From an uncultured bacterium (GTDB taxonomy: Bacteria > Patescibacteriota > Minisyncoccia > UBA6257 > 2-01-FULL-56-20), in contig OY970382.1 of the NCBI GenBank assembly GCA_963719425.1, positions 522,880 to 586,879 on the forward strand: a DNA stretch of 64,000 nucleotides. Reading direction: 5' to 3'. The number at the start of each line of letters is the position of its first letter. The first letter of the stretch is position 1. The position numbers and the translations under genes were made by a program. A model generated the notes under the pieces. That model ran no database searches and was not told the DNA's origin. It saw only the letters and a program-made list of their open reading frames with translations. This document shows positions 11,826 to 64,000 of the stretch, piece by piece.

Positions 11826-12818
11826 CTACCGCCCCCTGCGTAACGCCCTCTTGACCGCAGACTTAATATCTTTCACGCCCATTCCGTATTTCTCAATCAG
11901 CGCGTCCGGCGGGCCGGATTCGCCGAATACATCGTGCAAACCGATGAATTCCATGGGCGTGGGGGCGTGCTTCGCAAGCGCTTCCGCAACCGCGCCGCCC
12001 AATCCCCCGCTCACCTGATGTTCTTCCACGGTCACGACTGCGCCGATCTTTTTCGCAAGCTCCACGATCTTCTTTTCGTCCAGCGGCTTTATTGTGTGGC
12101 AATTCATAACGACCGTGCCAATTTTTTCCTTCTCCAATTCCCGCGCAGCGACGAGCGCATGATAGAGAATCCCCCCGCAGCCGATAATGAGTACCTGCGG
12201 TTTTTTTGATTCCCAGAAAATCTCCGCCTTGCCGGGCACATAGGGCGTCTCCTCAGTCGTCACAACGGGGGTCTTCTCGCGCCCGAAGCGCAGATACACG
12301 GGTCCCCAGATCCGCGCCGCCGCGAGCGTCGCTTTCTTCGCTTCCACCGCATCGCATGGCACGAACACTTTCATATTCGGCATCGCCCGCATTATGGCGA
12401 TATCCTCCGTCGCCTGGTGCGTCGCGCCGTCAGCTCCCGCGGAAACACCTGTATGATGCCCCGCAATCTTCACGTTGGCGTCGTTATAGGCAATGGTGGT
12501 CCTGATCTGCTCCCAATTGCGGCCGGGAGAAAACGTGGCGAAGGACGCAATGAACGGGGTTTTGCCCGAAACGCCCAGGCCAGCGGCGATTGCCGCCATA
12601 TTCTGTTCCGCAACGCCCATTTCTATGAATCGCTCCGGGAATTTTTTCGCGAACGCCTCGGTGCGCGTGGATTCCGTAAGGTCGGCGCACAGCGCGACCA
12701 CGTTCCGGTTTCCCTCCCCCGCCGCGAGCAAACCCCCGCCGTATCCGTCGCGCGTCGGCCTCCGTTCCACGTCGGCATCAAACAATTTCGGATTCAGTTT
12801 TGCATCAGGGTTCAGCAT
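11826..12818 (-). CDS. tkt: Transketolase, C-terminal subunit (pyrimidine-binding and C-terminal domains)
   Basis: FIEMGVAEQNM, GATHQ and related Tkt C-half motifs. About 330 aa, so a split-type transketolase. Confidence 0.85.
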   Translation of the reverse strand: MLNPDAKLNPKLFDADVERRPTRDGYGGGLLAAGEGNRNVVALCADLTESTRTEAFAKKFPERFIEMGVAEQNMAAIAAGLGVSGKTPFIASFATFSPGRNWEQIRTTIAYNDANVKIAGHHTGVSAGADGATHQATEDIAIMRAMPNMKVFVPCDAVEAKKATLAAARIWGPVYLRFGREKTPVVTTEETPYVPGKAEIFWESKKPQVLIIGCGGILYHALVAARELEKEKIGTVVMNCHTIKPLDEKKIVELAKKIGAVVTVEEHQVSGGLGGAVAEALAKHAPTPMEFIGLHDVFGESGPPDALIEKYGMGVKDIKSAVKRALRRGR

Positions 12819-12827
12819 GGCGCGTTG

Positions 12828-14387
12828 TTATTGATGCTCCGAATGTATTTTCCCGCGCAGCGTCCGGAGTTCGGCGAGCGCTTTCTGCGCTTCCCCCGGC
12901 TTGAAGGGCTTCGCGTGCCAACGGTAATCGTTTTCCATAAAATCCACGCCTTTGCCGGGGATCGTGTGCGCGATGATGCAGGTCGGCATCTCGTAAACGG
13001 CCTTCGCTTCGTTCACCGCCGCGACGATCTCTTCAAAGCTGTGGCCGTCAATTTCCAAAACATGCCAGTTGAACGCTTCGTACTTCGCGCGCAAGGGCTC
13101 TAACGGCATCACGTCCTCGGTGAAGCCGTCAATTTGGATATTGTTGCGGTCCACGATAACGGTAAGATTGCTCAAGCGATGTTTCCCGGCGAACATAACC
13201 GCTTCCCACGTGTTGCCTTCCTCATGCTCTCCGTCGGAGGTCACACAATACGTCCGCCATTTTCTGCCGTCCATGCGCGCCGCAAGCGCCATACCAACCG
13301 CCTGCGAAATACCGGAGCCAAGCGGACCGGAGGTTGTCTCAATGCCGGGAAGGGCGGTGCGGTGCGGATGGCCCTGCAGCCGCGTGCCGAGGTGCCGCAG
13401 CGTCTTCAATTCCTCCACCGGGAAATACCCGGCATGCGCGAGTGCGGCGTACTGCACAGGGCAATAATGGCCGCACGAAAGCACCAGGCGATCGCGCTCC
13501 GGCCAGCCAGGCCGCTTGGGATCATATCGCAAAATATGGAAATACAGCGCGGTAAAAATTTCGGCCATGCCGAGCGGTCCCGCGATGTGGCCGGAGCCCG
13601 CATGTGAGACCATTTCAATCACGTCCTCGCGCAGGCGTGTAGCCATCAGCTCCATCTCCCGCAATTTTTTCTCAGTGAGTGGTTCCATGAGCATGTTGCG
13701 CGCATGCGCCTCAACCGTCGCGCGGTACCATTCCGAACGCGGAAGGCGCGCGTGCACAAGGTCATCATACGCCGCAGCCGGATCGTCGCTCCCAAAAATG
13801 TAGTTCCCCGACACCACGACGTCCGCGCCGGCTGCCTTCGCGCGCCGCGCAGTCAAGGGCACGATCCCGCCATCCACTTCAATTATAGCGCGGGGCATCT
13901 TTCGCCTCAAAAACCTGATCCTCGCGAGCATGAGTGGGAGAAATTTCTGTCCCGCGGGACCGGGGTAGACCGCAAGCACCTGAAACCGCGTTATTTTCCC
14001 GAAATAGGGTTCCAGTTTTTTTACGGAGGTTTCGGGATTCAGGGCGAGCATCACCTCCGCGCCGCGCGCTGCACACTTTTCACGGATCGCATTGAGTGTT
14101 TTTTCACTTACGGTTTCTACGTGCACGATGAAGCGCCTGGCGCCTGCCGCGAGCCACCGTTCAATGTACGATTCCGGCCGTTCCACCATCAGGTGCACCT
14201 CCAGATTGAACGGCGCGCGGAGATTCGCCCATTCCGTGGGATTCGCCCACGTTTTGTGGAACGTAAACGCCCCGTCGGCGACGTCAAGATGAAAAAACGT
14301 GCCGCTCTCCAAAAACGCTTTCGCAGCTTCCACCCGCGCCCGCGCACAACGGAAGTCTGGACAATTGATAATGGGAAGGATTTCCAT
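12828..14387 (-). CDS. rpe: Fusion protein: ribulose-phosphate 3-epimerase (N-term ~220 aa) + transketolase N-terminal (TPP-binding) subunit
   Basis: N-terminal HLDVADGAFTF ... VHLMV ... IEVDGGI matches Rpe. C-terminal SGHIAGPLGMAEIF ... GHY ... SDGEHEEGNTWEA matches the Tkt TPP domain. Single ORF of 519 aa. Confidence 0.8.
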   Translation of the reverse strand: MEILPIINCPDFRCARARVEAAKAFLESGTFFHLDVADGAFTFHKTWANPTEWANLRAPFNLEVHLMVERPESYIERWLAAGARRFIVHVETVSEKTLNAIREKCAARGAEVMLALNPETSVKKLEPYFGKITRFQVLAVYPGPAGQKFLPLMLARIRFLRRKMPRAIIEVDGGIVPLTARRAKAAGADVVVSGNYIFGSDDPAAAYDDLVHARLPRSEWYRATVEAHARNMLMEPLTEKKLREMELMATRLREDVIEMVSHAGSGHIAGPLGMAEIFTALYFHILRYDPKRPGWPERDRLVLSCGHYCPVQYAALAHAGYFPVEELKTLRHLGTRLQGHPHRTALPGIETTSGPLGSGISQAVGMALAARMDGRKWRTYCVTSDGEHEEGNTWEAVMFAGKHRLSNLTVIVDRNNIQIDGFTEDVMPLEPLRAKYEAFNWHVLEIDGHSFEEIVAAVNEAKAVYEMPTCIIAHTIPGKGVDFMENDYRWHAKPFKPGEAQKALAELRTLRGKIHSEHQ

Positions 14388-18228: not shown

Positions 18229-18876
18229 ATGAAAACCGACCGGCTGAAAATGACGCTTGTCGTCCTCTCCGCTGCGGCGCTTGCCTTCGCCGTCCTCGCA
18301 GGTTTTATTGTTTTCTATCCCACCGGTTCTTACCAGCCCGTTGTACTACAAAATCGCGGCGCCACTTCTTCTTCCACTTCCTCTTCCACGGTTCTCCTAC
18401 CCTCCTCAACCACCTCATCAACAAGCACAACTTCCCCAACACCGGTGCTCACGGCAACCGCCGGCGGCTTCTCAAGCGAATATTCGTCGCCCTACCCCGT
18501 CCAGTGGTCCGAGGGCAACGAATCGTTCTCCATCACTGGCGCCGCGCTCCAAAATAACCAGCTCACGCTTTCGCTCGCCATCAAAATGGGTGCCGTTTCG
18601 GAATGCGTGCCGGTTAACCTCCGCCTCGTCGCGGACGAATTCGGAACGCTCCAACCACCGAGCGCGCCACCCGCGAGCACATTCACGTTTCCCGATACCC
18701 AATCCTGCGACGGCACGCCCGGCGCGACATACAGCGAATCGGTTGTTTTCAATATTGATCCCTCAATCCCCGCCCCGTTCCTTCTCACGACCGGCGGCGC
18801 ATCAAACGTTTTCTTCAATGTCGCAACGGACACCACGGGCGGCGTGGACGTCACGCTGCCGTCTCACTCGGGGTAA
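18229..18876 (+). CDS. Membrane-anchored S/T-rich hypothetical protein
   Basis: N-terminal TM helix followed by a poly-S/T tract. No recognisable domain. Confidence 0.4.
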   Translation: MKTDRLKMTLVVLSAAALAFAVLAGFIVFYPTGSYQPVVLQNRGATSSSTSSSTVLLPSSTTSSTSTTSPTPVLTATAGGFSSEYSSPYPVQWSEGNESFSITGAALQNNQLTLSLAIKMGAVSECVPVNLRLVADEFGTLQPPSAPPASTFTFPDTQSCDGTPGATYSESVVFNIDPSIPAPFLLTTGGASNVFFNVATDTTGGVDVTLPSHSG

Positions 18877-18971
18877 TCTTCTGAACGCAATAGTGCCGTA
18901 GCGATACCGGGACGCCGCGTGCGGTGCAGCGCTTGAAACCCTGCGCGCTTCTGTTACACTACTAATCGTAT

Positions 18972-19283
18972 TCCGGCGTAGCTCAATGGTAGAGCGGCTC
19001 CCTGTCAAAGAAGGCAGCGCGCACTGGAAACGGTGCGATGAACATCTCGGGATAACGGTGAAGGCTAACCCGCAAGGCATGCGAACACCGTGGGAACCCC
19101 AGCCGTAAATGTGCGTTGCGCGCAGTTACGGCTGGGGACTCCGTAGAGACTAGATACCGAGACGCCTAATGTCCACTTTTCGGTTTTCGTGGGCGACGGC
19201 GATGATATAGTCCACGCCTTTTGGAAACATTGGGATTACGTGTAAGGAGATGGTTCCAGGTTCGAGTCCTGGCGCCGGAGCCA
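18972..19283 (+). tRNA. Intron-containing tRNA, most likely tRNA-Asn(GUU); group I intron in the anticodon loop
   Basis: 5' exon TCCGGCG-TA-GCTC-AATGGTA-GAGC-G-GCTCC-CTGT. 3' exon TAA-GGAGA-TGGTT-CCAGG-TTCGAGT-CCTGG-CGCCGGA-G-CCA. Perfect acceptor pairing. A U|...G| splice junction with an IGS GGCAG pairing to CUGU favours a loop of CUGUUAA. Splicing after U33 would instead give UGU (Thr). Confidence 0.6.
19006..19242 (+). ncRNA. Group I intron (~237 nt, no ORF) inside the tRNA anticodon loop
   Basis: Conserved core elements seen directly: R-like GUAGAGACUAGAUA (19150-19165) and S-like GAUGAUAUAGUCC (19201-19213) forming P7. Terminal G before the 3' exon. Candidate P1/IGS GGCAG near the 5' end. 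Several stable hairpins. Confidence 0.6.
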
Positions 19284-20769
19284 GTAGTTGGATTGAATGG
19301 GTTTTATTAAAATTTTCACGCGCGGAGCGAAGCTCCGCGTATGTTGTAGTGGGGATAAACTCGACACGGCGGTTTTTAAGAAAGAGGTTCGAGCCGAAAA
19401 TTTTCTGCAGGGATACCTTCTTCAAACTTAGGTCGTCATTGGTCACCGCTTCGGTGAGTAATGACGCGTCTTTTACCCATTCCCGCATAGGTTCGAGCCA
19501 AGCACAAACGTCCCGTCCCAAACGGGCAATCTGCTCCTCTAGAGTCTTCTTCTCTGACATAAGGACACAACGACGCTCAAGATAGGCGTCGCGCTCAATA
19601 TCTTGGGCGATATATATGTCGGTTAAGCGTTCCAACTGGCGGTCTATGTCCTTAACCTGCTCGCGCAGGGTTTGGATCGCGCGGGAGGCAACGCTTCCTG
19701 CTTTCTGTTCATCCTCTTTCATCCTCTGCTCATAGTATTCGACAAAAATCGGCGGCATGACGTATTGGGACAAGAGCGTGGAAAGATCGGCGGCGAGAGT
19801 TTCTTCGCGGACGTAGGGTTGTAAACATCGAACCGCCGACTTTTTGGTACAGCGATAATAGACGTAGCGGTGGACGTTTCCATTCTTTTGTTTTTTAATC
19901 CGCTCCTCGGCAGTGATCGCCATATGGCACTCGCCGCACGTGAGCAAGCCGCACAACGCTTGCGGGTCCTTCGTCGCAGTCTGCGGGTGGCCGCGCTTCA
20001 CGATAATTTTCTGCACCTTATCCCAAAGCCGCTTCTCAATGATCGGCGTATGTTTGCCTTCAAGCAGTTCTCCCTTGTAGACGAAATGGCCGTAGTAGAA
20101 CGGATTGGTGAGAATGAACTTCACGCGGTCTTCGTGCATCTCGTTGCCGTACAGACTTTTTACGCCGTTCTCGAACAGGAACTTGCCGATGTCTTGAATA
20201 CGGGAATTGCCCTTCGCATACAACTCGAAGGCCGCCCGTATGACGGGGGCCTTCTTCTTGTCCACGACAATCAACCTCGTGCGCGGATTGTTGAGATAGC
20301 CAACAGGAGCTGTACCAGGAAACTCGCCGCGCTTCGCTTTCTGCCGCAATCCCCGCGCCGTATTGGAACTCAGATCGCGGATATACTGGTTCGCCATTCC
20401 GAATTCGACGGACATCAAAAGTACGTTGTCGGCGGGATAGTAGCTTCGATCGTAGGCCTGAATGTGTGCTATCGTCCCACTTTGCAAGAGCCACTGGATT
20501 TGTGCCGCGTCCACTGGATTACGAGCTAAGCGGTCGATTTTCCAACAGATAATACCTTGGGCTTCGCCCGCGTTTATACGGGACATCATCTCATTAAATA
20601 TGGGACGGCCAGGAATTTTAGCCGTTTGTCGTTCCTCGAACTCCGCGACGATATTCAATCCTTCCTTCTTGGCAAGCTTATGCAAGACGGCAATCTGATC
20701 TTCAATCGAATGGACTTGCCTGTCCTTATCGTCGGTTGATTTGCGAGCATAGAGAAAATAGGTGGTCAT
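19150..20769 (-). CDS. Large serine recombinase (resolvase catalytic domain + recombinase domain + zinc ribbon); C-terminal ~90 codons overlap the IR and the tRNA/intron, so the true end is uncertain
   Basis: N-terminal YARKSTDDKDRQVHSIEDQ (catalytic Ser region) and the zinc ribbon CGLLTCGECH ... YYRCTKK. The reading frame continues through the tRNA 3' exon to a TAG inside intron element R. Confidence 0.75.
   Translation of the reverse strand: MTTYFLYARKSTDDKDRQVHSIEDQIAVLHKLAKKEGLNIVAEFEERQTAKIPGRPIFNEMMSRINAGEAQGIICWKIDRLARNPVDAAQIQWLLQSGTIAHIQAYDRSYYPADNVLLMSVEFGMANQYIRDLSSNTARGLRQKAKRGEFPGTAPVGYLNNPRTRLIVVDKKKAPVIRAAFELYAKGNSRIQDIGKFLFENGVKSLYGNEMHEDRVKFILTNPFYYGHFVYKGELLEGKHTPIIEKRLWDKVQKIIVKRGHPQTATKDPQALCGLLTCGECHMAITAEERIKKQKNGNVHRYVYYRCTKKSAVRCLQPYVREETLAADLSTLLSQYVMPPIFVEYYEQRMKEDEQKAGSVASRAIQTLREQVKDIDRQLERLTDIYIAQDIERDAYLERRCVLMSEKKTLEEQIARLGRDVCAWLEPMREWVKDASLLTEAVTNDDLSLKKVSLQKIFGSNLFLKNRRVEFIPTTTYAELRSARENFNKTHSIQLLAPAPGLEPGTISLHVIPMFPKGVDYIIAVAHENRKVDIRRLGI
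19280..19417. repeat. Inverted repeat IR-L (138 bp), begins at the tRNA CCA end and covers the last ~45 codons of the recombinase
   Basis: Reverse complement equals 22972..23109 with one mismatch (checked base by base). Confidence 0.85.
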
Positions 20770-21037: not shown

Positions 21038-21454
21038 ATGCCAAAACAACACGACATACTAAAGAAACTTTTTACGGATGATTCTGAGGTCAATCCTGAA
21101 GAACTCTTTAAGCTATTATCCCCTTTTGTCAGAATAAATAAAAAGAGTAAGGAGGTGGTTTTCTTAGACGAGGCTCATAAACAATCTGTAAAAAATAAGA
21201 TCGTCCTTTTCTTATTAGCCAAGAAGGTACTCTTTTTATTAGGTGAAGCTGATACCGATCACGTTCAACCTAAGATTATTATTAAAGAATCTGGGATGCC
21301 AAGAGGGACCGTGCTACCGACATTGAAATCTCTTCGCGATAGTAAAACTGGCTCTTTCGTAAGCACTGAAGACGGTTCTTACTATATCTCCAGTTATCAG
21401 ATCGCCAAGATAAAAGAAAAAAACATTTTTAAGAACCATGAAAAAGACAAATAA
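21038..21454 (+). CDS. Hypothetical protein (AT-rich segment)
   Basis: ORF in a compositionally distinct low-GC block. Confidence 0.4.
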   Translation: MPKQHDILKKLFTDDSEVNPEELFKLLSPFVRINKKSKEVVFLDEAHKQSVKNKIVLFLLAKKVLFLLGEADTDHVQPKIIIKESGMPRGTVLPTLKSLRDSKTGSFVSTEDGSYYISSYQIAKIKEKNIFKNHEKDK

Positions 21455-21785
21455 AGAAATCATTGATCAGATAAGAGTTCTACTGAATGAGCTAGAGGGA
21501 TCGAAGCCCAGAGAACTGAACGCCCAGACTCATCATGCTAAGCAAACGATGAAGATCGGAAGGATTCCGACGGGCTGTATAGGTGCTATCCAGACATTAG
21601 TCGATGAGGGATTCTTAGATGAACTCCGAACTGTCCAGCAGGTTGTCGTAAAACTCAGGGAAGAAGGACAACCCTACAGCAGAGCATTAGTCTCTATGAA
21701 CTTATTGAATTTAGTGAAGCCTCCTCGGAAATTACTCCGACGCGTTAAAGATCAAGATCAGTGGCAATACATACTTAGAAAATAA
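21438..21785 (+). CDS. Hypothetical protein (AT-rich segment)
   Basis: ORF overlapping the previous stop by 17 nt, suggesting an operon. Confidence 0.4.
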   Translation: MKKTNKEIIDQIRVLLNELEGSKPRELNAQTHHAKQTMKIGRIPTGCIGAIQTLVDEGFLDELRTVQQVVVKLREEGQPYSRALVSMNLLNLVKPPRKLLRRVKDQDQWQYILRK

Positions 21786-21787
21786 AC

Positions 21788-22183
21788 ATGGCCAATCAAC
21801 TTAAAGACATACTAGACCGACTGACTAGATTAGAGGAGGTGGTGTTTGGTAACAAAGAGAAACCCGATAGTAAATTAAAGATACCAAATAAGAAAGGCAG
21901 ACTAGATTTCTCTCTTAACGAGAGAGCCTTTCTAAAAAAATACTTCTTTAAGTTTAATGGTCAACAAACATTCGCTTTAATTTGCGCTGCCTTATCGAAG
22001 GGAAAAACGGACACTCCAATCAATCTCTCGGGTATAAAGAAGACTTGGAAAAATTGCCAAGGAATCATTAAGTATCCATACAGTTCTATCTACTCTACCA
22101 GAGCGAAAGAGAACAATTGGGTTGTTCCAGGAAATAAGGCTACCTATTCGATTCGGCCTTCGTGGATAGAAATATTTAATTAA
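21788..22183 (+). CDS. Hypothetical protein (AT-rich segment)
   Basis: ORF tightly packed with its neighbours. Confidence 0.4.
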   Translation: MANQLKDILDRLTRLEEVVFGNKEKPDSKLKIPNKKGRLDFSLNERAFLKKYFFKFNGQQTFALICAALSKGKTDTPINLSGIKKTWKNCQGIIKYPYSSIYSTRAKENNWVVPGNKATYSIRPSWIEIFN

Positions 22184-22187
22184 TCCG

Positions 22188-22964
22188 ATGACAGAGGAAG
22201 AAGCTATCAAAAATGTATTGATCAAGGTCTTCCCTGCCAAGCACATTACCTCCGCGCTCGAACACTTCTCAGAGGCAGAGACAAAGTACCAACAGGAGGA
22301 TTGGGAAAAATCCTTATTGAGAAGTGGCAAGTTTATCGAATCAACATTAAAAGCCTTGTACGTTTATGCTGGTAAAACATTGCCGCCTAGTCGGCAATTT
22401 AAGGTCAGCACGGTCATTCAACAATTAGGACAACTTAGTAATAGCTACGACGACACTATCAGGCTAACCATCCCTCGTAGCTGCTCTTTCATTTACGATA
22501 TAGTTAGCAATCGAGGTGCGCGGCACGATTCAGACGATTTTGATCCAAATAAGATGGACGCTAGTGTTTCGATACCAACAATTTCATGGATATTGTCTGA
22601 AATGATCCGTTTCGCGAGTCAAACATCGCCGAGTAACGATGACGTTACTTCATTCACTGAGAGTCTGATGGAGAAAAAACATCCCCTATTTGAAACGATA
22701 GATGGCAGAATCTATGTTAACCACAAAGGATTGACTCCAAAGGATTTAGCCCTACTACTCTTATACGCGTACTATCCTAAAAGAATATCGCGAAAGGAAC
22801 TAACAGATTCTATAGAGAGGCATGGCAACTTTACCAGAAATGCAATTGCTATCGCGCTAACGAATATCAAAGACTTGGTTGATGATGACGGGACTGGTAA
22901 TTGGAAACTTCGTGAAATCGGCAGAGCTAAAGCCGCGCGGATATTAAATACATTACACTCATAG
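22188..22964 (+). CDS. Hypothetical protein (AT-rich segment)
   Basis: 258 aa ORF with no motif recognised. Confidence 0.4.
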   Translation: MTEEEAIKNVLIKVFPAKHITSALEHFSEAETKYQQEDWEKSLLRSGKFIESTLKALYVYAGKTLPPSRQFKVSTVIQQLGQLSNSYDDTIRLTIPRSCSFIYDIVSNRGARHDSDDFDPNKMDASVSIPTISWILSEMIRFASQTSPSNDDVTSFTESLMEKKHPLFETIDGRIYVNHKGLTPKDLALLLLYAYYPKRISRKELTDSIERHGNFTRNAIAIALTNIKDLVDDDGTGNWKLREIGRAKAARILNTLHS

Positions 22965-22971
22965 TTTATAA

Positions 22972-23109
22972 GGTATCCCTCCAGAAAATTTTCGGCTCGA
23001 ACCTCTTTCTTAAAAACCGCCGTGTCGAGTTTATCCCCACTACAACATACGCGGAGCTTCGCTCCGCGCGTGAAAATTTTAATAAAACCCATTCAATCCA
23101 ACTACTGGC
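22972..23109. repeat. Inverted repeat IR-R (partner of 19280..19417); on the + strand it encodes ...KVSLQKIFGSNLFLKNRRVEFIPTTTYAELRSARENFNKTHSIQLL then ASSYESTRTYFARNLS*
   Basis: Direct comparison. It would provide an alternative, stop-terminated 3' end for the recombinase if the segment inverted. Confidence 0.85.
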
Positions 23110-23149
23110 TAGTTCGTATGAGTCCACTCGTACCTATTTTGCCCGAAAT

Positions 23150-27533: not shown

Positions 27534-28652
27534 CTATAGACCAACCGAGTTAGCCCCATACTCTGCTTGTGCTTGCGTGAATTTGTCGTACTCCAACTGT
27601 GCAATGAGACTGCCGCGTGAAAAAGCGGAATACGACATGTACTGTTGCGCCGCTTTAGCCGCTTCGTCATTCCAGTTGGCTCCAGAATTATCTGCGCCAT
27701 AAACTGCTTGAGATTGTGTAAATTGATCGTGCACCAATTGAGCAACCAGCCCATCGTGAGAAAATGCCGTGTAGCTCAAATAAGATTGTGCCGCCTTAAT
27801 CGCCTGTGCGTTCCAGTCGGCGCCAACGTTATCCGCACCGTAAACCGCGTCAGACTGTGAGAATTGATCGTGCACCAATTGAGCAACCAACCCATCATGA
27901 GAAAATGCTGTGTAGTTTAAGTAAGACTGCGCCGCCCTAACCGCGTTCTGTTGGCTAACCGTTTCGTTTGATGCGGCTGATGTATTTTGACTGTTTGTTT
28001 GTTCAACTTGGGTCGGCGGCGGACTAGAAACGGTAATTATTCCGCTGCAAACCTGATTCATCGATTGGCTTCCCGAAACGATCTTCACGCTTGCACCCTT
28101 CGTACCCGTGGTCGAATACGTGAGCGACGTTGATTTTCCAGTACCGGATAGTCCGTCTGTTCCAGACCAAGAATACGAGTAACTACCGGTTCCTCCGGAG
28201 GCCTGAACTACCCATATCCCCGTCTGACCAGTGGTGAGGGTACTTTGTGCAGGAGAACATGTCGCGGAAATCGCCGGTGTCGGTGTCGGCTGTGGAGCAG
28301 TTGTTTGAGTCGTTTGATTTGGTGCAGCCGCATCGGTAACCGTTTTATTAGGCGTTGGCGTTTGCTGCGGAACGTTGGTGACTACAGGAGCCGAGGTGGT
28401 TGCAGTAGTTGACGCCGAAGGAACTGTTGCCGATTCGTTCGCGACTTGCTGGTTGGAATTTTCTACTGGGGAATTGCTTGTGGGGGTAGATGGGCTCGTG
28501 ACACCGATCAAAATAAAGAAAACTATTATTGCGCCGCCGAAAAGGAATCCGGCTTCCCTGCGGGATCGGAGCTTCAAAGACGAGGGCTTGCTAAGGCCCA
28601 CGATAAAACCAGCGATTGAAACGAGTAAGAGAAGGAAGAATAGACTGGTCAT
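27534..28652 (-). CDS. Membrane-anchored S/T-rich protein with three tandem Ltp-family-like repeats (host cell surface-exposed lipoprotein / superinfection-exclusion type)
   Basis: Three copies of AAQSYL-YTAFS-DGLVAQLVHDQF-QS-AVYGAD, matching the Ltp repeat pattern (SYL.YS.FSR.GL..QL.FD.F...A.YAV). N-terminal TM helix. Confidence 0.5.
   Translation of the reverse strand: MTSLFFLLLLVSIAGFIVGLSKPSSLKLRSRREAGFLFGGAIIVFFILIGVTSPSTPTSNSPVENSNQQVANESATVPSASTTATTSAPVVTNVPQQTPTPNKTVTDAAAPNQTTQTTAPQPTPTPAISATCSPAQSTLTTGQTGIWVVQASGGTGSYSYSWSGTDGLSGTGKSTSLTYSTTGTKGASVKIVSGSQSMNQVCSGIITVSSPPPTQVEQTNSQNTSAASNETVSQQNAVRAAQSYLNYTAFSHDGLVAQLVHDQFSQSDAVYGADNVGADWNAQAIKAAQSYLSYTAFSHDGLVAQLVHDQFTQSQAVYGADNSGANWNDEAAKAAQQYMSYSAFSRGSLIAQLEYDKFTQAQAEYGANSVGL
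27560..27960. repeat. Three ~123-bp tandem DNA repeats encoding the Ltp-like repeats
   Basis: Direct nucleotide-level repetition visible in the sequence. Confidence 0.7.
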
Positions 28653-28799: not shown

Positions 28800-28865
28800 C
28801 AGGTTCGTACAGCCACTAAGCCGCCGGAGCACCTAGGAAAAGTATCGGGGAGACCGAGAGGTATC
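28800..28865. repeat. Junction motif copy a (..gGTTCgtacAgCCActaaGCCGCCGGAGCACCTAGGAAAAGTATCGGGGAGACCGAGAGGTATCG)
   Basis: Shares GCCGCCGGAGCACCTA..AAAAGT.TCGG..GAC..AGA.GG.TAT with copy d. Confidence 0.55.
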
Positions 28866-28932
28866 GCTTGATGTAACTAATTTTTTCCGTTACACTGTTG
28901 CTCGGAACGCAGTTATTTCAAGGAGGAGTACA

Positions 28933-29208
28933 ATGGCGAAGCCAATGAATCTAGGCAGCGGCGCTAATGCCGTGATTCTAAACGAACTCAGGAGGAAGGG
29001 AGGCACCGCCCGTTTGAATCTCAAGGTGCTTTCAGCCCAATCCAGCTTTAAACATGGGACTGTCAGCCATGCTCTCCATCGTTTGCAGAGAGAGGGGTTT
29101 GTCAAAATTGAAGAAGAGGGGGCCGGGTTGCGCTCACCCTTGGTCAGCCTCTGCTACCAGAACATTAATCTCCTGCCCTGCACAATCTCTACCCTGGGGC
29201 AGACGTAA
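28933..29208 (+). CDS. Small hypothetical protein, possibly winged-helix DNA-binding
   Basis: 91 aa with an HTH-like VSHALHRLQREGFV. Weak. Confidence 0.3.
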   Translation: MAKPMNLGSGANAVILNELRRKGGTARLNLKVLSAQSSFKHGTVSHALHRLQREGFVKIEEEGAGLRSPLVSLCYQNINLLPCTISTLGQT

Positions 29209-30580: not shown

Positions 30581-30646
30581 TGGGTTCTCCCATCGTCCAG
30601 CCGCCGGAGCACCTAACAAAAGTTTCGGACGGACCAAGATGGGTAT
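30581..30646. repeat. Junction motif copy d (GGGTTCTCCCATCGTCCAGCCGCCGGAGCACCTAACAAAAGTTTCGGACGGACCAAGATGGGTATA)
   Basis: Best-preserved copy. Lies 65 bp upstream of the 30711 start. Confidence 0.6.
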
Positions 30647-30710
30647 AGTTCCAATGGTCGAATTAGTTCAAATCCAAGCCGTGAGTCAAAGTGTTTGATA
30701 TAATTCAATT

Positions 30711-43807: not shown

Positions 43808-45457
43808 CTAGTGCTGGTAAAACCCGCGGGCGACGGCGTCGGGAATCATAATGAGCGGGACGCCGTACTTTGCGCACATGGCTTTTACGTCGCCGTCTTT
43901 CACCGAGCCGCTTGTGGCAAGAATGGCTTTGATGCCCGCCTTCGCAAGCACTTCGGGACCGTCGGGGAACGGGAAGAAGCTGTCGCTGTAGGCAGCCGCG
44001 CCCGCAACCTCGTGGCCGGCGTCCTTCGCGCGCTTGATCGCGAGCTCACAGCAGCTTACCCTGTCCTGCTGGCCCACGCCGTTGCCGATGAGCTGGTTCC
44101 CCATGACGAGCGTGACGGTGTTGCTGTTGCTCGTTGAGCCGATCGCCCACGCGAGGAGAAGATCATTTTCTTGTTCCGGCGTGCAATTGCCATTCCGCTC
44201 CACACGGGGATCTTTGAGGTCCAGGACAAACGCGTAATTCGGCTGGGTGAGAAATCCGCCGCGCACGGCGCGAAATCTTGTTTCATAGTTCAGGCTGCCT
44301 GCGGTGAGCGAGCCGAGTGCCGCGTTTTCCAAGAGGCGGCACTTCCCGCCTTTCCGCGCAAGGAGTTCCACTGCCTCAGGCGCAAAGCTCGGCGCGACGA
44401 CGCCGTCCAAGAGCCGCCTTGCACCCGCGGGCATTTGCGCGTGGATAAGCGTTTCGGCGACCGCTCCGTCAACGGGAAACATTAGCATCACAAGTCCGCC
44501 AAAAATGGCGCGAAGGTCGCCCGAAAGCATATTTTTTATAACTTCGGTCGGATCGTTTCCCACTGCCGCGCCGCAGGGATTGCCGTGCTTTACGCCGACC
44601 GCGATGTGCGGGACCTTTTTGCGGTTCACGTCAAATACGGCGGCAATATGCGTCGCGGTCTGAAGCATACGATCCACATCACAAAGATTGTTATAGCTCA
44701 GCGCGTCACCGGCGACGGTGCGGAACCGGAAAAGCGCGAGTGGATCGCCGCCCGCATCTTGTGCCGTGCCAGTCGTGCCCACCGTGCCCGTTGAATCCGC
44801 TGTAATTTCCGTCGCATAGAGCGCCGCCGGCGTCTGCCAGGCATTCTCCCCATATTTGCACGTGAGAACGCGCGACCCGATAAAGCCGTCAAACTGCCCG
44901 CCGCTCCGATAACGGCTTGCGGTCAAACAATATTCGGCGACAATCGCGTCGGCTTTCGCATTAAGTTGATCAATGAATTTTTCCCTGTCGGGATATCCTT
45001 TATCAATCCACTCTATGACCTTCGCGCGGTCGGCGGGATCGGAGATGACGATGCGCTCCCCTTTTGCAGCGGAGTGCAGCATGGTCGGGCCGCCCACGTC
45101 CGTCATCTCTATGACTGAAGCGCGCGTGCTGCCTTCTTTTGCGATCGCATCATGCAAGGGATAAAGATCAACGCAAACAAGGTCAATGCGCGGGAGCCCG
45201 AGCCGTTTCAGTTCCTCTTCGTCTTCGGGAATATTCCGCGCGAGAAGCCCCGCATGGATCTGTCGCGACAACGTGACTACGCGATGCCCCAGGATCGGCT
45301 CGCCCACGATATCACCCACGTCCCGCACCGCAACGCCCGCTTCGCGGAGCGCCTTCGCCGTGCCGCCCGAGGCGAGGATCTGCCACCCGCGCGAAACCAA
45401 ATCGCGCGCGAATTCAACGACTCCCTCCTTGTGATACACAGACAGCAACGCGGTCAT
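43808..45457 (-). CDS. purH: Bifunctional AICAR transformylase / IMP cyclohydrolase
   Basis: N-terminal MGS-like ALLSVYHKEGVVEFARDL ... ASGGTAKAL and the C-terminal AICARFT domain. Confidence 0.85.
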   Translation of the reverse strand: MTALLSVYHKEGVVEFARDLVSRGWQILASGGTAKALREAGVAVRDVGDIVGEPILGHRVVTLSRQIHAGLLARNIPEDEEELKRLGLPRIDLVCVDLYPLHDAIAKEGSTRASVIEMTDVGGPTMLHSAAKGERIVISDPADRAKVIEWIDKGYPDREKFIDQLNAKADAIVAEYCLTASRYRSGGQFDGFIGSRVLTCKYGENAWQTPAALYATEITADSTGTVGTTGTAQDAGGDPLALFRFRTVAGDALSYNNLCDVDRMLQTATHIAAVFDVNRKKVPHIAVGVKHGNPCGAAVGNDPTEVIKNMLSGDLRAIFGGLVMLMFPVDGAVAETLIHAQMPAGARRLLDGVVAPSFAPEAVELLARKGGKCRLLENAALGSLTAGSLNYETRFRAVRGGFLTQPNYAFVLDLKDPRVERNGNCTPEQENDLLLAWAIGSTSNSNTVTLVMGNQLIGNGVGQQDRVSCCELAIKRAKDAGHEVAGAAAYSDSFFPFPDGPEVLAKAGIKAILATSGSVKDGDVKAMCAKYGVPLIMIPDAVARGFYQH

Positions 45458-55507: not shown

Positions 55508-56248
55508 TTATCCCTGCGGAAAAAGAAGCATGGCGGCCTTTTTTGATTCCTCAAGAATTGCTTCTTCCCCTTTGCGGACAAGCGGCATTTCGCGCACGAA
55601 CTCCCGCACGCGGCCGTTCATAAAGTCCTCCAGAGTTGCAATCTGCGTTTCGTGCTCCAAGGGGAGCAGCCGCGCCGCAAGCGACCGCGGATCATCGGCC
55701 GGCAAAATTGCGAGCCGCGTGCACGCGAGAACCGCGCCTTCGTCAAACTGCTCCGCCACTCGCTGCGCCGTCGCCTCGGTCCAAAAGTCGCGACCCACGC
55801 TCCGCACGAAAAGAAGCCGCGCCGCGTGGACGCGCACGCCGAACATCCCCTTCCCGCCGAAATCGGGACGGCCCGGGTCAAGCGGCCCCGGGTGCTGGTT
55901 GATCATAAAATTTTGGTATGCGGCGATCACGTTGCCGGGCGTTTTTATCATCCATCCGTACTGGCCGACGAGATCAACATTCTGTTCCTTAAGAACTCTC
56001 AGGATCGCATTCCCGAACTCCTCTTCGTTGGAAAATTTCTTCGGCTCAATAACAAAAATATTTTCGCGCGGCATTCCCAACTGCTGCATTTTTTTGATCG
56101 CCCCGGCATCGGGCCTGCTTGCGACAAGGCACGCAGGATTGATCCCCGAGAGCCGTCCGGACTGACATGCTTTCATGATCGCCTCGGCGGTCGTGCCGCC
56201 CCCCGAAGCAAGTATGGCCAAACGAAACGTTTTCATACCTTTCATGCC
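55508..56248 (-). CDS. purN: Phosphoribosylglycinamide formyltransferase
   Basis: MKTFRLAILASGGGT ... formyl-transferase fold. Start set at the internal Met; the longer ORF overlaps purF. Confidence 0.75.
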   Translation of the reverse strand, partial: GMKGMKTFRLAILASGGGTTAEAIMKACQSGRLSGINPACLVASRPDAGAIKKMQQLGMPRENIFVIEPKKFSNEEEFGNAILRVLKEQNVDLVGQYGWMIKTPGNVIAAYQNFMINQHPGPLDPGRPDFGGKGMFGVRVHAARLLFVRSVGRDFWTEATAQRVAEQFDEGAVLACTRLAILPADDPRSLAARLLPLEHETQIATLEDFMNGRVREFVREMPLVRKGEEAILEESKKAAMLLFPQG

Positions 56249-57648
56249 CAAGTTTCCTGCAGGGCTGGTATGCCGACCTCCGCCTTCCGCTCGCGGATGT
56301 CTAAGGGATATCTCCCGGTGAAACAAGACGTACACAGTTTGTCTTCGGGAACGCCAATTCCTCGGAGGATCCCCTGATACGAAAGATAGTGGAGCGATGT
56401 CGCGCCTAGAAATTCCCTGATCTCGGGAATTGTCTTTTGGAAGGCAAGGAGGCACGCTTGCCTGGGTGTGTCAATGCCGTAAAAATCGGGAAAGCGCACG
56501 GGCGGAGAGTTCACTAAGAAATGCACTTCTTTCGCACCCGCTTCAAAAAGGATCTTCACGATCTGCGGACTCGTGTTACCGCGCACGATGGAATCATCTA
56601 TTACGATGACGCGCTTGCCTCCTACAATGTCGGGAATGGCCGCAAGCTTCGTTTTCACCCCCTGCTTGCGCATCCGGTCGTCCGGATCAATGAATGTCCG
56701 ATACACGTAGCGGTTTTTAACGAGCGCGAGTTCCAAAGGAATCCCCGCCTCCCCCGAGTAGCCGACCGCGGCAGGAATGCCGGTTTCGGGGATGGGGATC
56801 ACCATGTCGGCGTCAATTTTGCGTTCCCGGGCAAGTTCAATGCCGCACCGTTTGCGGGCGGCATACACCGAGGTCCCCAAGAGCACGCTGCTTGAACGCG
56901 CAAAATACACGAATTCAAAGATGTCCATCTTTTGATCGGGGGGCACAAGTTGAATTGACCGCATGCCTTTCTCGTCCACCACAATCATCTCGCCGGGAAG
57001 GACGTCGCGCATGAAGGTCGCTCCGACCGAGGGAAAGCTGCACGTCTCGGAAGAGAATGTAAACCCACCGTTCAACTGCCCCATGGAGAACGGTTTGAGG
57101 CCATAGGGATCGCGCACGGCGACGAGCGTCGTCTTGTCCATAATGAGAAGCGAGAACGAGCCGGTGAAAAGCGGGTAGGCCTTCCGCACTGCGTCCTCAA
57201 GCAGAAGGCCCTGCTTCGTGAAATGTTCGATGGCGAGCGTCATCATGTAAGAATCCGAGCGGCCTGTCACGTCCACCCCTTCTTTTTTCAAAAATTCCGC
57301 GAGCACCTTCACGCTCGGCAAATTGCCGTTGTGCGCAAGCGCGACGTACCCATTCCCCGTCATGATCGGCTGTGCGTGCCGAATGCCAGTTCCCGATGAA
57401 GTGGAATACCGGTTTTGCCCGATCGCAATGTGGCCTTTCAAACTATCAATTTTTGCTTCGTTAAAAACCTGCGTGATAAGACCGTTGTCTTTGTGACAAT
57501 CAATGTGCGAGCCGTCGGCAACCGCCATTCCCGCGCTTTCCTGCCCGCGATGCTGGATGGCGAGAACGCCGAAGAATGTGATCCGCGCCACGTCCAGGCC
57601 CTTCCCGTAAATGCCAAAGACGCCGCACTTTTCGTTGAGTTCGTGCAT
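56242..57648 (-). CDS. purF: Amidophosphoribosyltransferase
   Basis: N-terminal nucleophile MHELNEKCGVFGIYG plus the PRTase domain. Confidence 0.85.
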   Translation of the reverse strand: MHELNEKCGVFGIYGKGLDVARITFFGVLAIQHRGQESAGMAVADGSHIDCHKDNGLITQVFNEAKIDSLKGHIAIGQNRYSTSSGTGIRHAQPIMTGNGYVALAHNGNLPSVKVLAEFLKKEGVDVTGRSDSYMMTLAIEHFTKQGLLLEDAVRKAYPLFTGSFSLLIMDKTTLVAVRDPYGLKPFSMGQLNGGFTFSSETCSFPSVGATFMRDVLPGEMIVVDEKGMRSIQLVPPDQKMDIFEFVYFARSSSVLLGTSVYAARKRCGIELARERKIDADMVIPIPETGIPAAVGYSGEAGIPLELALVKNRYVYRTFIDPDDRMRKQGVKTKLAAIPDIVGGKRVIVIDDSIVRGNTSPQIVKILFEAGAKEVHFLVNSPPVRFPDFYGIDTPRQACLLAFQKTIPEIREFLGATSLHYLSYQGILRGIGVPEDKLCTSCFTGRYPLDIRERKAEVGIPALQETWA

Positions 57649-61352: not shown

Positions 61353-64000
61353 TTAATATCCCTTGAACGTGGATTTATACGCCCGCAACATTTCGCCGAG
61401 CGGCATCTTCGCCACTTTCCTGCGGCGGATTACGACGTGCTCTTTATTCGTCACACGGCCGATGCATGCGAACGGATTGCCGCGTATCTTTTTTTCAAAC
61501 TCGCGGTGGCGGCGCGGAGCGACGGTCGCGACGATCCTCCCCTGGCTTTCGGAGAACAACGCCGCCTCGTCGCTTGAGACCGTTCCAGGCAGTTTCGCAA
61601 GCGAAATATCCAATCCGAGCTTCCCTGCCATCGCCATCTTCGCAAGCGCGACCGCAAGACCGCCTCGGGCCACGCTTATGGCCGACGCCACCGTGTCCGC
61701 GCGCACACAGGAGTAGAACGCATCATACAACCGCTTGTTTTTCTTTGCGTCCACATGCGGCACCCTTCCGGTGGAAAAATATTCACTGCCGCCGAGTTCG
61801 TCAAAGGTCTCGCCCAAAACATACACAAGGTCGCCCGCCAACTTTGCGTCAAGCGACACCGACTTCGCGGCATCGGGAACGACGCCGATCGCGGAGATCA
61901 AAAGCGTCGGCGGAATGGAAATTTTCAATGGATTCCCCTTCTCGTCGTACCCTTTAAAATCATTGAACATACTGTCCTTCCCCGAAATGAACGGCGTCCC
62001 ATATGCAACTGCGTAGTCGTAACACGCCTGCACGGCGCGCTTCAGTTGGAACAGCCGCTCCGGCTCGTTTGAACTGCACCAGCAGAAATTATCAAGCAGT
62101 GCGAGATAGTCGGGGTCAGCGCCCGCAGCCACGGCGGACCGGATCGCGGTGTCAATTGCACACGCTGCCATCGCATAGGGATCGCGCTCCGAGTACGTTG
62201 GGACAATGCCGGACGAAAGCACGACTCCTTTCGGAGAATCAAGAACCGGTCGGAAAACCGACGCGTCCGCATTCACCCTTCCCTTTCCTACGAGCGGCTT
62301 CAGCACGGAACTCGCCTGCACTTCGTGGTCGTATTGCATGGAAATAAATTCGTAGCTTGCGATGCTTGGCCGCGCGAGCATGCGAAGGACCGCGGCGCCG
62401 AGATCACGCTCATTGGGAAGCGGAGAGTCAATTTTAAGTGCGAGCGAGATTGGTTCACGGGTCGTGAGGTACTTCGTAGGCAGGCCTTCATGCAAAAACT
62501 CCAGATCGATATCCATTGCGGTCTTCCCTTTAAATTTCACAACGCACTTTCCAGAGTTTGTAAATCGCCCGATCACGGTCGCCTCCACGCCGCGCGCCCG
62601 CAAAAGTTTTGAGAGTTCCGGCCACTTTGCTTTCGGCACGGCGAGCGTCATGCGCTCCTGCGATTCCGAAACCCAAATCTTCCACGGCTCAAGGCCGGGA
62701 TATTTAAGCGGCACCTTATCCAGATCAACCAGACAGCCGTTGCACTCCTTTGCCATCTCGGCGACCGAGCACGAAAGTCCGCCGGCGCCGTTGTCCGTAA
62801 TGCTGTGATAGAGGCCACGGTCGCGCGCTTCTTTTATCAAGGCGTCGCTCATTTTTTTCTGCGTGATCGGATCGCCAATCTGCACCGCAGTTGCAGGGCT
62901 TCCCGAATCCATCGCCTCCGAAGAGAACGTCGCGCCGTGGATGCCGTCCTGCCCGACGCGCCCGCCCGTCATCACGATATAGTCCCCCGGCTGCGCCCGC
63001 TTTTTGTACAAAGGTTTGCCTCCGTGCACCCGCGGAATGAGCCCTACCGTCCCCACGAACACAAGCGGCTTCCCGCGATAACGCTTGTCAAAAAGGACAA
63101 ATCCCTGCGGCGTGGGGATGCCGGAGCAATTTCCGCCGACGTTCACGCCCTTCACCACGCCGTCCATGATCCGCCGCGCAGAAAGCATTTTCTGCTTTTT
63201 CTCCGCGTCGCGGTAGAGCACGCTCGTATCGCGCGGATCGGCGAAGCAAAAACCGTAAAGGTTCGCAACCGGCTTCGCGCCGAGCCCGAACCCCATCGTA
63301 TCGCGATTCACGCCCACAATGCCCGTGACGGAACCGCCGAACGGATCAAGCGCGGAAGGGCTGTTGTGCGTTTCCACTTTGTGCGTGATCAAATACTTGT
63401 CATCAAACGCGATTGCGCCGGAGTTGTCGGTGAAAACCGAAACGCAAAAATCTTCTTTGTCTTTCTTCTCACGGATGTCGTTCGTCGCCTGCTTGATGTA
63501 CGAACGAAAGAGGCCTCCCCGTACCTCGTCAATCGGATCCGCGAAGATCGTGTGCTTGCAGTGCTCCGACCACGTCTGCGCGAGCGATTCAAGCTCCACG
63601 TCGGTCGGATGGCGCTTTTTCTTCATGAAATAATCGCGGATCATTTTCATGCTCGGGAGATCAAGCGCGAGCGGCCCGTTCCTTGTCCCATCTTTGTTCC
63701 GGATCCCCTCTTTCCCAACGCGGGAAAGCTCCTCGTCACTTACCTCCAAATTCACGTTTTCCACGGACGGCCTCGTGTGAAGTTTCACTCTCGGAACCAC
63801 GGCTCCCATTCCCTTGTCACGCCTGAATTCACCCGCGCTTTTTATCCGCACCCGCTGGATGAGTGGGTTATAAAGGCCTTCCGCGATGGCCGTGGCATCC
63901 ACTTTTCGCAATCTTCCCGAGAGAAAGAAAACCTGCGAGGAGTACACGCCCTGGCCATTTTTGAATTTTCTTCCCAGGAAATCTTCTATCGTCTCCCTTG
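61353..64000 (-). CDS. purL: FGAM synthase large subunit (5'-partial; the reading frame stays open to the window edge, and >100 aa precede the WSEHCKH motif)
   Basis: QTWSEHCKHTIF and AIRS-like repeats. The listed start is a GTG, and the frame continues upstream without a stop. Confidence 0.85.
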   Translation of the reverse strand, partial: RETIEDFLGRKFKNGQGVYSSQVFFLSGRLRKVDATAIAEGLYNPLIQRVRIKSAGEFRRDKGMGAVVPRVKLHTRPSVENVNLEVSDEELSRVGKEGIRNKDGTRNGPLALDLPSMKMIRDYFMKKKRHPTDVELESLAQTWSEHCKHTIFADPIDEVRGGLFRSYIKQATNDIREKKDKEDFCVSVFTDNSGAIAFDDKYLITHKVETHNSPSALDPFGGSVTGIVGVNRDTMGFGLGAKPVANLYGFCFADPRDTSVLYRDAEKKQKMLSARRIMDGVVKGVNVGGNCSGIPTPQGFVLFDKRYRGKPLVFVGTVGLIPRVHGGKPLYKKRAQPGDYIVMTGGRVGQDGIHGATFSSEAMDSGSPATAVQIGDPITQKKMSDALIKEARDRGLYHSITDNGAGGLSCSVAEMAKECNGCLVDLDKVPLKYPGLEPWKIWVSESQERMTLAVPKAKWPELSKLLRARGVEATVIGRFTNSGKCVVKFKGKTAMDIDLEFLHEGLPTKYLTTREPISLALKIDSPLPNERDLGAAVLRMLARPSIASYEFISMQYDHEVQASSVLKPLVGKGRVNADASVFRPVLDSPKGVVLSSGIVPTYSERDPYAMAACAIDTAIRSAVAAGADPDYLALLDNFCWCSSNEPERLFQLKRAVQACYDYAVAYGTPFISGKDSMFNDFKGYDEKGNPLKISIPPTLLISAIGVVPDAAKSVSLDAKLAGDLVYVLGETFDELGGSEYFSTGRVPHVDAKKNKRLYDAFYSCVRADTVASAISVARGGLAVALAKMAMAGKLGLDISLAKLPGTVSSDEAALFSESQGRIVATVAPRRHREFEKKIRGNPFACIGRVTNKEHVVIRRRKVAKMPLGEMLRAYKSTFKGY

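Follow-up and report, generated by a model that had tools for sequence, protein, structure and literature searches.

The window (the whole stretch of DNA analysed, 64,000 nucleotides) contains, near 19 kb, two halves of a tRNA gene that stand apart, separated by an insert with the look of a group I intron. This locus raises three questions: whether the insert is a group I intron, which tRNA it interrupts, and whether such a gene would still yield a working tRNA.

A split tRNA gene in the window

ARAGORN in intron mode found a split tRNA at 18972-19283 with an insert of 237 nt in the anticodon loop, which is the size that an earlier reading of the letters, made without database searches (hereafter the sequence-only reading), had estimated. 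The gene reads TCCGGCGTAGCTCAATGGTAGAGCGGCTCCCTGT, then the 237-nt insert, then TAAGGAGATGGTTCCAGGTTCGAGTCCTGGCGCCGGAGCCA. When the two halves were joined at 19005/19243, ARAGORN folded them into a canonical 75-nt tRNA-Asn(GUU) cloverleaf with a 7-nt loop and an encoded CCA, as had been expected from the exons. The acceptor end, UCCGGCG...CGCCGGA-G-CCA, has a U1-A72 pair and the discriminator G73, which are of the Asn type and not of the Thr type (G1-C72). The tRNA has a G.A mismatch at 27:43. The coordinates of the predicted features are collected in Table 1.

The locus was missed by ARAGORN with default settings and by Rfam at its gathering threshold, and the sole tRNA reported in the window was a tRNA-Glu elsewhere. 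A composite pattern, made up of the core motifs, G/UAA (the slash marks the splice site) and an appropriately spaced T-loop, had a single match in the window and no match in 100 shuffles. The folding energy of the region was -96.7 kcal/mol (z = -3.68); P2, P3, P4, P5, P6 and P8 were already seen when the sequence was folded singly. Since standard tools miss or mislabel the gene, the genome would seem to be without tRNA-Asn, and less complete than it really is.

Table 1. Predicted features of the interrupted tRNA gene and its 3' flank (positions of the window)
Feature	Position	Strand	Description	Basis
tRNA-Asn 5' exon	18972..19005	+	positions 1-35, ending C32 U33 G34 U35	ARAGORN intron mode, splice enumeration
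Group I intron	19006..19242	+	237 nt, without ORF, between anticodon nucleotides 35 and 36	Rfam alignment, RNAalifold/pair counts, family junctions
P1	19002..19017	+	CUGU and intron C (19002-19006) paired with the GGCAG guide (19013-19017); wobble U19005.G19014 at the 5' splice site	
P2	19020..19037	+	hairpin, 7 bp, GAAA loop	compensatory changes at 7/7 pairs
P3, 5' strand	19045..19050	+	partner 19157-19162	6 pairs, 3 compensatory, 100% paired
P4 and P5	19055..19091	+	P4 (19055-19060 with 19086-19091) around P5 (19064-19065 with 19081-19082), GCAA-capped tip	RNAalifold, pair counts
P6 and P6a	19092..19142	+	P6 (19092-19093 with 19141-19142) and long extension P6a (19097-19108 with 19126-19137)	18-sequence alignment, single-sequence fold
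P7, 5' strand	19146..19152	+	G, bulged A, GACUA; in R motif; guanosine-binding site; pairs with 19208-19213	Rfam consensus core match
P3, 3' strand	19157..19162	+	CCGAGA	pair counts
P8	19163..19201	+	19163-19166 with 19198-19201; inner stem 19171-19176 with 19189-19194	7/8 pairs compensatory
P7, 3' strand	19208..19213	+	UAGUCC, in S motif	Rfam alignment, pair counts
P9	19217..19234	+	hairpin, GAAA loop, two internal U.U mismatches	both-sided changes at 6/7 pairs
tRNA-Asn 3' exon	19243..19283	+	U36 A37 A38 through A72, G73, CCA	ARAGORN, splice enumeration, relatives
Large serine recombinase ORF	19150-20769	-	539 aa; Resolvase, Recombinase and Zn_ribbon_recom domains; converges on tRNA-Asn	
Inverted repeat	19279-19419 and 22970-23110		141 nt, 99%; brackets a 3.8-kb module of the recombinase and four small ORFs	
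Apparent first stacked insertion	~19.28-28.83 kb		includes Ltp-type lipoprotein gene 27534-28652	
Apparent second stacked insertion	~28.87-30.6 kb		includes MarR-like ORF 28933-29208	

Group I elements of the insert

The R and S core elements that the sequence-only reading had recognized were located at 19143-19154 (GTAGAGACTAGA) and 19201-19213 (GATGATATAGTCC). Its terminal G was also recovered, as the omega G at 19242, and all parsed family members among the matches listed likewise end in G. The proposed P1, in which the internal guide GGCAG pairs with CUGU and the first intron nucleotide, was borne out by relatives, in which CUGU and GCAG never vary and the adjoining pair covaries.

In a sensitive Rfam scan of 18850-19400 (551 nt), Intron_gpI (RF00028) aligned over model positions 1-253 to 18991-19234 with 22.5 bits and E = 0.0015. 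At the Rfam gathering threshold of 50, there was no Intron_gpI match in this region. The covariance model, which had been proposed as a check, therefore gave an end-to-end alignment with a score below the curated threshold. Failure to fold P3-P9 with covariance models had been named as evidence against a group I intron, and this objection holds for the Rfam score but not for the comparative fold, which was strong. The Rfam seed of 12 sequences includes none from bacteria (Williams 2020, bioRxiv 10.1101/2020.01.27.920355).

Relatives and comparative fold

One scan of species-representative genomes, with the core motifs, G/UAA and the T-loop, gave at least 119 loci. The full pre-tRNA was 67-82% identical to many of the listed loci, and the nearest relatives among the matches listed were L075 (82% identity) and L094, L070, L117, L115 and L083 (77-78%). 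The window and L075 have upstream genes in common, and these are partly shared by L083 also. All 112 parsed loci among the matches listed had a 5' exon ending in CUGU, GCAG near the start of the intron, a terminal G and a 3' exon starting with UAA, and the anticodon loop was CUGUUAA in all 112. The relatives keep the T stem and all anticodon-stem pairs besides 27:43 across 97 distinct spliced sequences (among the matches listed).

The window and 17 relatives at 67-82% identity were aligned with MAFFT (18 sequences, 80 invariant columns). RNAalifold, run on this alignment with no group I prior, found P1, P2, P3, P4, P5, P6 and P8, with compensatory changes at 23 of the 41 pairs it drew. Before pairs were counted, this structure was completed with P9 and the P7 pseudoknot. 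Over P1-P9, standard pairs occupied 93.3% of cells, compared with 36-48% when the partners were slid; compensatory pairs numbered 29 of 54, compared with 13-18; and the covariation score was 0.444, compared with 0.07-0.13. None of 500 shuffles matched the observed pairing values.

The signal differed between helices. Nearly every pair of P2, P6a and P8 covaries. P1 has four invariant pairs and a fifth that covaries (CG 12, AU 3, GC 3). P6a, which exceeds that of the closest relatives listed by ~26 nt, has compensatory changes at four of five pairs. P4 is nearly invariant, and a single P5 pair covaries between GC and CG. P7, which forms a pseudoknot with P3, is invariant at six of six pairs in the 18 sequences. 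The invariant P4 and P7 are thus consistent with the fold without giving a covariation signal of their own. P9 was the weakest helix, paired in 70% of cells of the unstructured MAFFT alignment, partly because MAFFT displaces P9 by one column in some rows. Among the 85 short family members in the matches listed, GAAA was found in the L2 region of 80 and in the L9 region of 70, and canonical 11-nt tetraloop receptors were scarce (P8, 6/85; P5, 5/85).

Of the features that define a group I intron, helices P3-P8 with the P3/P7 pseudoknot, a P1 guide with its U.G wobble, and the omega G were found. The claim of a tRNA gene with a group I intron in its anticodon loop is thus upheld by the split ARAGORN call and by a fold backed by covariation in relatives.

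Asparagine or threonine

Only two junctions fit a U before the 5' site, a terminal G and a 7-nt loop. The junction 19005/19243 gives the loop CUGUUAA and the Asn anticodon GUU, and the junction 19003/19241 gives CUUGUAA and the Thr anticodon UGU. With the latter, this would be a tRNA-Thr(UGU) gene whose intron, 19004-19240, sits at 33/34 after a 5' exon that ends at 19003. Intron-mode ARAGORN calls exactly this, a Thr(tgt) with a 237-nt intron, and the Thr junction, too, has U as the last base of the 5' exon and G as the last base of the intron. A splice after U33, however, allows no P1 containing a U.G pair, and it is CUGU that the conserved GCAG pairs with. The partner of the P1 extension covaries with the base after U35: among the 112 parsed loci of the matches listed, the base after U35 and the base 5' of GCAG were G-C in 41, C-G in 31, A-U in 18 and G.U or U.G in 8. 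This covariation fixes the 5' splice site. Furthermore, relatives whose junction reads CAUG/UAA or AACG/UAA (e.g. L058 and L056) cannot yield UGU.

The acceptor end also argues against tRNA-Thr. An automatic check of 7-bp acceptor pairing and G73 was passed by 106 of the 112 parsed members among the matches listed; the other six were start-call or truncation artefacts and had U1-A72 and G73 by inspection, which makes 112 of 112. Among the retrieved loci, an intron-less tRNA-Thr(UGU) gene had G1-C72/U73, whereas an intron-less tRNA-Asn gene had U1-A72/G73. The U1-A72 pair and G73 of the window tRNA would presumably fit Asn identity and not Thr identity. Only these acceptor-end features told the isotypes apart; overall identity to the intron-less tRNAs of the retrieved loci failed to do so. 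Annotated E. coli tRNAs gave matches that were too weak to settle the isotype, with tRNA-Asn best at E = 0.01 and Arg and Thr close behind.

The Thr(tgt) label, which ARAGORN puts on most family members, arises from the two-base ambiguity of GU...GUG. Exactly this miscall has been documented by Nakagawa et al. 2026 (mSystems, PMC13011429; preprint 10.1101/2025.07.03.662931), who found that annotation tools overlook introns of the family or call Thr(UGU) at 33/34 via a two-base shift, and who sequenced the Asn junction. From the P1 covariation, the CAUG and AACG intron ends, U1-A72 with G73 and the published junction, we regard a tRNA-Thr gene as extremely unlikely, in agreement with the preference for Asn(GUU) over Thr(UGU) in the sequence-only reading. 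We concluded that the locus is very probably a tRNA-Asn(GUU) gene cut between U35 and U36 by a 237-nt, ORF-less group I self-splicing ribozyme.

Predicted splicing and function

In the proposed reaction, the precursor would be transcribed as a single RNA, and P1 would arise by pairing of the guide GGCAG with the exon CUGU, U35.G being the wobble. P7 would bind a free guanosine, which would attack after U35. The intron-terminal G (19242) would next occupy the same P7 pocket, and the 3'-OH of U35 would attack before U36, so that the exons are ligated into a normal 75-nt tRNA-Asn. Self-splicing in vitro was reported for a tRNA-Asn family member from GCA_016700035.1, for which the ligated junction was sequenced and an omega-G-to-C control was included (PMC13011429). 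By homology to this family, we infer that the window copy splices as well.

The intron could instead be a decayed relic that no longer splices, in which case the window copy would be a tRNA pseudogene and another tRNA-Asn gene would be used. The sub-threshold Rfam score, the two U.U mismatches in P9, the G.A at 27:43 and the mobile island inserted at the 3' end of the gene are all in line with decay. However, the window copy has the consensus base at every invariant or near-invariant column of the 18-sequence alignment, and its core helices are all intact. The G.A at 27:43 is common to 25 of 98 relatives among the matches listed, and the acceptor stem is still perfectly paired after insertion of the island. 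In addition, intron-bearing and intron-less copies of the same tRNA seldom coexist in genomes (PMC13011429). We therefore consider a relic very unlikely. The interrupted tRNA-Asn gene is real and almost certainly functional. The window copy would probably be the working tRNA-Asn gene of the cell, although an intron-less copy may lie in the genome beyond these 64 kb.

A member of a known intron family

The sequence-only reading had described group I introns in tRNA as rare outside cyanobacteria, plastids and some alpha-proteobacteria. This view is out of date, because group I introns occur in ~40% of Patescibacteria genomes (PMC13011429) and the family alone has at least 119 loci here. Nakagawa et al. 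described introns at site 35/36 of tRNA-Asn in Patescibacteria, where this is the commonest tRNA intron; they counted 28 such introns in 4,934 complete genomes, 19 of the 28 in Patescibacteria (PMC13011429). The site was first listed by tFind as Asn.4Ug (Williams 2020, bioRxiv 10.1101/2020.01.27.920355), as credited in the later paper (PMC13011429). Since an intron at the same tRNA and site has already been described and validated, the window intron is a further member of this family, and is not itself novel. It resembles the published 35/36 introns in its tRNA, its site, the CUGU/...G/UAA junction and the ARAGORN miscall as Thr(UGU) at 33/34, as well as in its size class (~185-270 nt without an ORF) and in being sub-threshold for or missed by standard tools. 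It differs in its P6 extension, which is longer than that of the nearest relatives listed, and in the encoded CCA and the serine-recombinase island at the 3' end.

The family is much larger, with at least 119 species-representative genomes, than the 15 complete-genome cases of the published survey. Its size supports the view that Patescibacteria carry the introns as a stable trait passed on by vertical descent.

Minisyncoccia is placed in the phylum Minisyncoccota (NCBI taxonomy). We take Minisyncoccota to be the validated name for Patescibacteria. The record titles of the listed loci were overwhelmingly those of Patescibacteria/CPR MAGs (Saccharibacteria, Paceibacteria, Peregrinibacteria, Yanofskybacteria and others). 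Among the six nearest relatives in the matches listed, three carry the labels Paceibacteria, Paceibacterota or Minisyncoccia, two that of "uncultured bacterium", and one, L075, that of Ignavibacteriota. Going by the labels of its relatives, the host of the window intron would most likely be a patescibacterium of the Paceibacteria/Minisyncoccia type; the label of L075 and the presence of purF, purH and purL in the window speak against this. Other labels from outside Patescibacteria were Gammaproteobacteria (L035, L050, L058, L102), Bdellovibrionales (L073, L076, L111, L121), Bacteroidetes/Bacteroidia (L053, L133), Limisphaerales (L134) and Brevinematales (L145). L075 shares the upstream gene order of the window, and it has its intron lineage in common with Paceibacteria relatives. 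At least some of the non-Patescibacteria labels may thus reflect mis-binning or mis-assignment rather than true spread across phyla.

Long introns were also seen in the family. In 27 of 112 members among the matches listed (L040, L043, L044, L056, L069, L134, L142 and 20 others), the intron was 503-558 nt long with a sense-strand ORF in the P1 loop, typically of 100-129 aa, with two shorter ones of 73 and 78 aa. These ORFs carry CxxC...HH...CANCH, the signature of HNH endonucleases that has been published for long tRNA-Asn introns; HNH endonuclease genes are carried by introns >500 nt (PMC13011429).

Comparison with classical IC3 introns

The window intron shares the core strings GUAGAGACUAGA and GAUAUAGUC with classical IC3 tRNA introns, and we take these to be identical to the core strings of Azoarcus. 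Phage tRNA-Leu introns contain these strings too. Those of cyanobacterial and plastid tRNA-Leu(UAA), Azoarcus tRNA-Ile(CAU) and Agrobacterium tRNA-Arg(CCU) are among the classical introns treated by Reinhold-Hurek and Shub (1992). Like these, the window intron is a compact, ORF-less ribozyme in the anticodon loop with one P8 between P3' and P7', without P7.1/P7.2, and with GAAA loops on P2 and P9. It differs in its host tRNA and in its site, 35/36 as against 33/34, 34/35 or 36/37 in the classical introns, and members of its family seldom have canonical 11-nt tetraloop receptors. The family was assigned to subgroup IA, not IC, with the covariance models of Selles Vidal et al. 2025 (PMC13011429). 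Against this published label, the window intron looks IC3-like by eye, as P7.1/P7.2 are absent.

A core-motif scan of viral contigs (IMG/VR, L001-L032) gave 32 matches carrying GTAGAGACTAGA...GATATAGTC. For nine of the 32, ARAGORN in intron mode reported a split tRNA, e.g. Leu-UAA in L009 and L019, and most of the remaining tRNA calls on viral contigs were unconvincing. The other 23 contigs had no tRNA call, so their introns presumably lie in other genes.

A serine recombinase island at the 3' end of the tRNA

The recombinase ORF that converges on the tRNA has no stop codon of its own before reaching it, and its final 44 codons lie antisense to the 3' exon and extend into P8/P9 of the intron (overlap 19150-19283). 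The homologous ORF of L083 likewise crosses the 3' exon, with its stop at the edge of the intron. The left arm of the inverted repeat begins at A72 of the tRNA and includes the last ~46 conserved codons of the recombinase. Within the module, the four small ORFs lie at 21038-22964, one of them with a weak HEPN match. The module could be an invertible segment, a pair of transposon ends or an assembly artefact. The GC content drops from ~0.56 to 0.38-0.43 between 20 and 26 kb.

When the last 25 nt of the tRNA were searched for as a direct repeat bordering the island, only the gene itself matched in the window, and the borders emerged only when the downstream sequence of relatives was used as a probe. 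In L075, L094 and L070, which are free of the element, the tRNA is followed by GGAGCACCTAGTAAAAGTATCGG... (GCCGCCGGAGCACCTAGGAAAAGTATCGG...), and this sequence recurs in the window at 28822-28869 and 30596-30652. Each recurrence is preceded by a decayed T-arm-like stretch, the first decayed copy of the tRNA 3' end spanning 28801-28869. In the predicted empty-site arrangement, the tRNA would be followed by GGAGCACCTAG... From the two decayed copies of the tRNA 3' end and its downstream sequence, two insertions seem to be stacked at the 3' end of tRNA-Asn, each with one of the copies as its far border. The island is the probable source of the present A72-G73-CCA, since L075 has GGAGCACC without CCA.

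Homologues of the recombinase (24-51% identity) lay directly downstream of, and convergent with, tRNA-Asn in all 15 of the parsed loci having one among the matches listed (L103, L137, L056, L083, L132, L038, L094, L078, L125, L037, L041, L035, L120, L087 and L033). A search of IMG/VR found no close relative of the window recombinase, and a literature search found no paper on a recombinase family integrating at the 3' end of tRNA-Asn. The convergent arrangement suggests that in Patescibacteria this recombinase family has long used the 3' end of tRNA-Asn as an integration site. We tentatively propose, although we hold it to be rather doubtful, that integration both rebuilds the end of the tRNA (here with the encoded CCA) and sets the C-terminus of the recombinase.

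Other genes in the window

At 12828-14387 on the reverse strand, a single ORF joins a ribulose-phosphate 3-epimerase domain to the N-terminal half of transketolase, and a separate ORF at 11826-12818 on the same strand encodes the C-terminal half. A GAPDH gene is also encoded in the window, together with the de novo purine genes purF (56242-57648), purH (43808-45457) and purL (61353-63947). The epimerase-transketolase fusion and the presence of purF, purH and purL are unusual for a reduced CPR genome.
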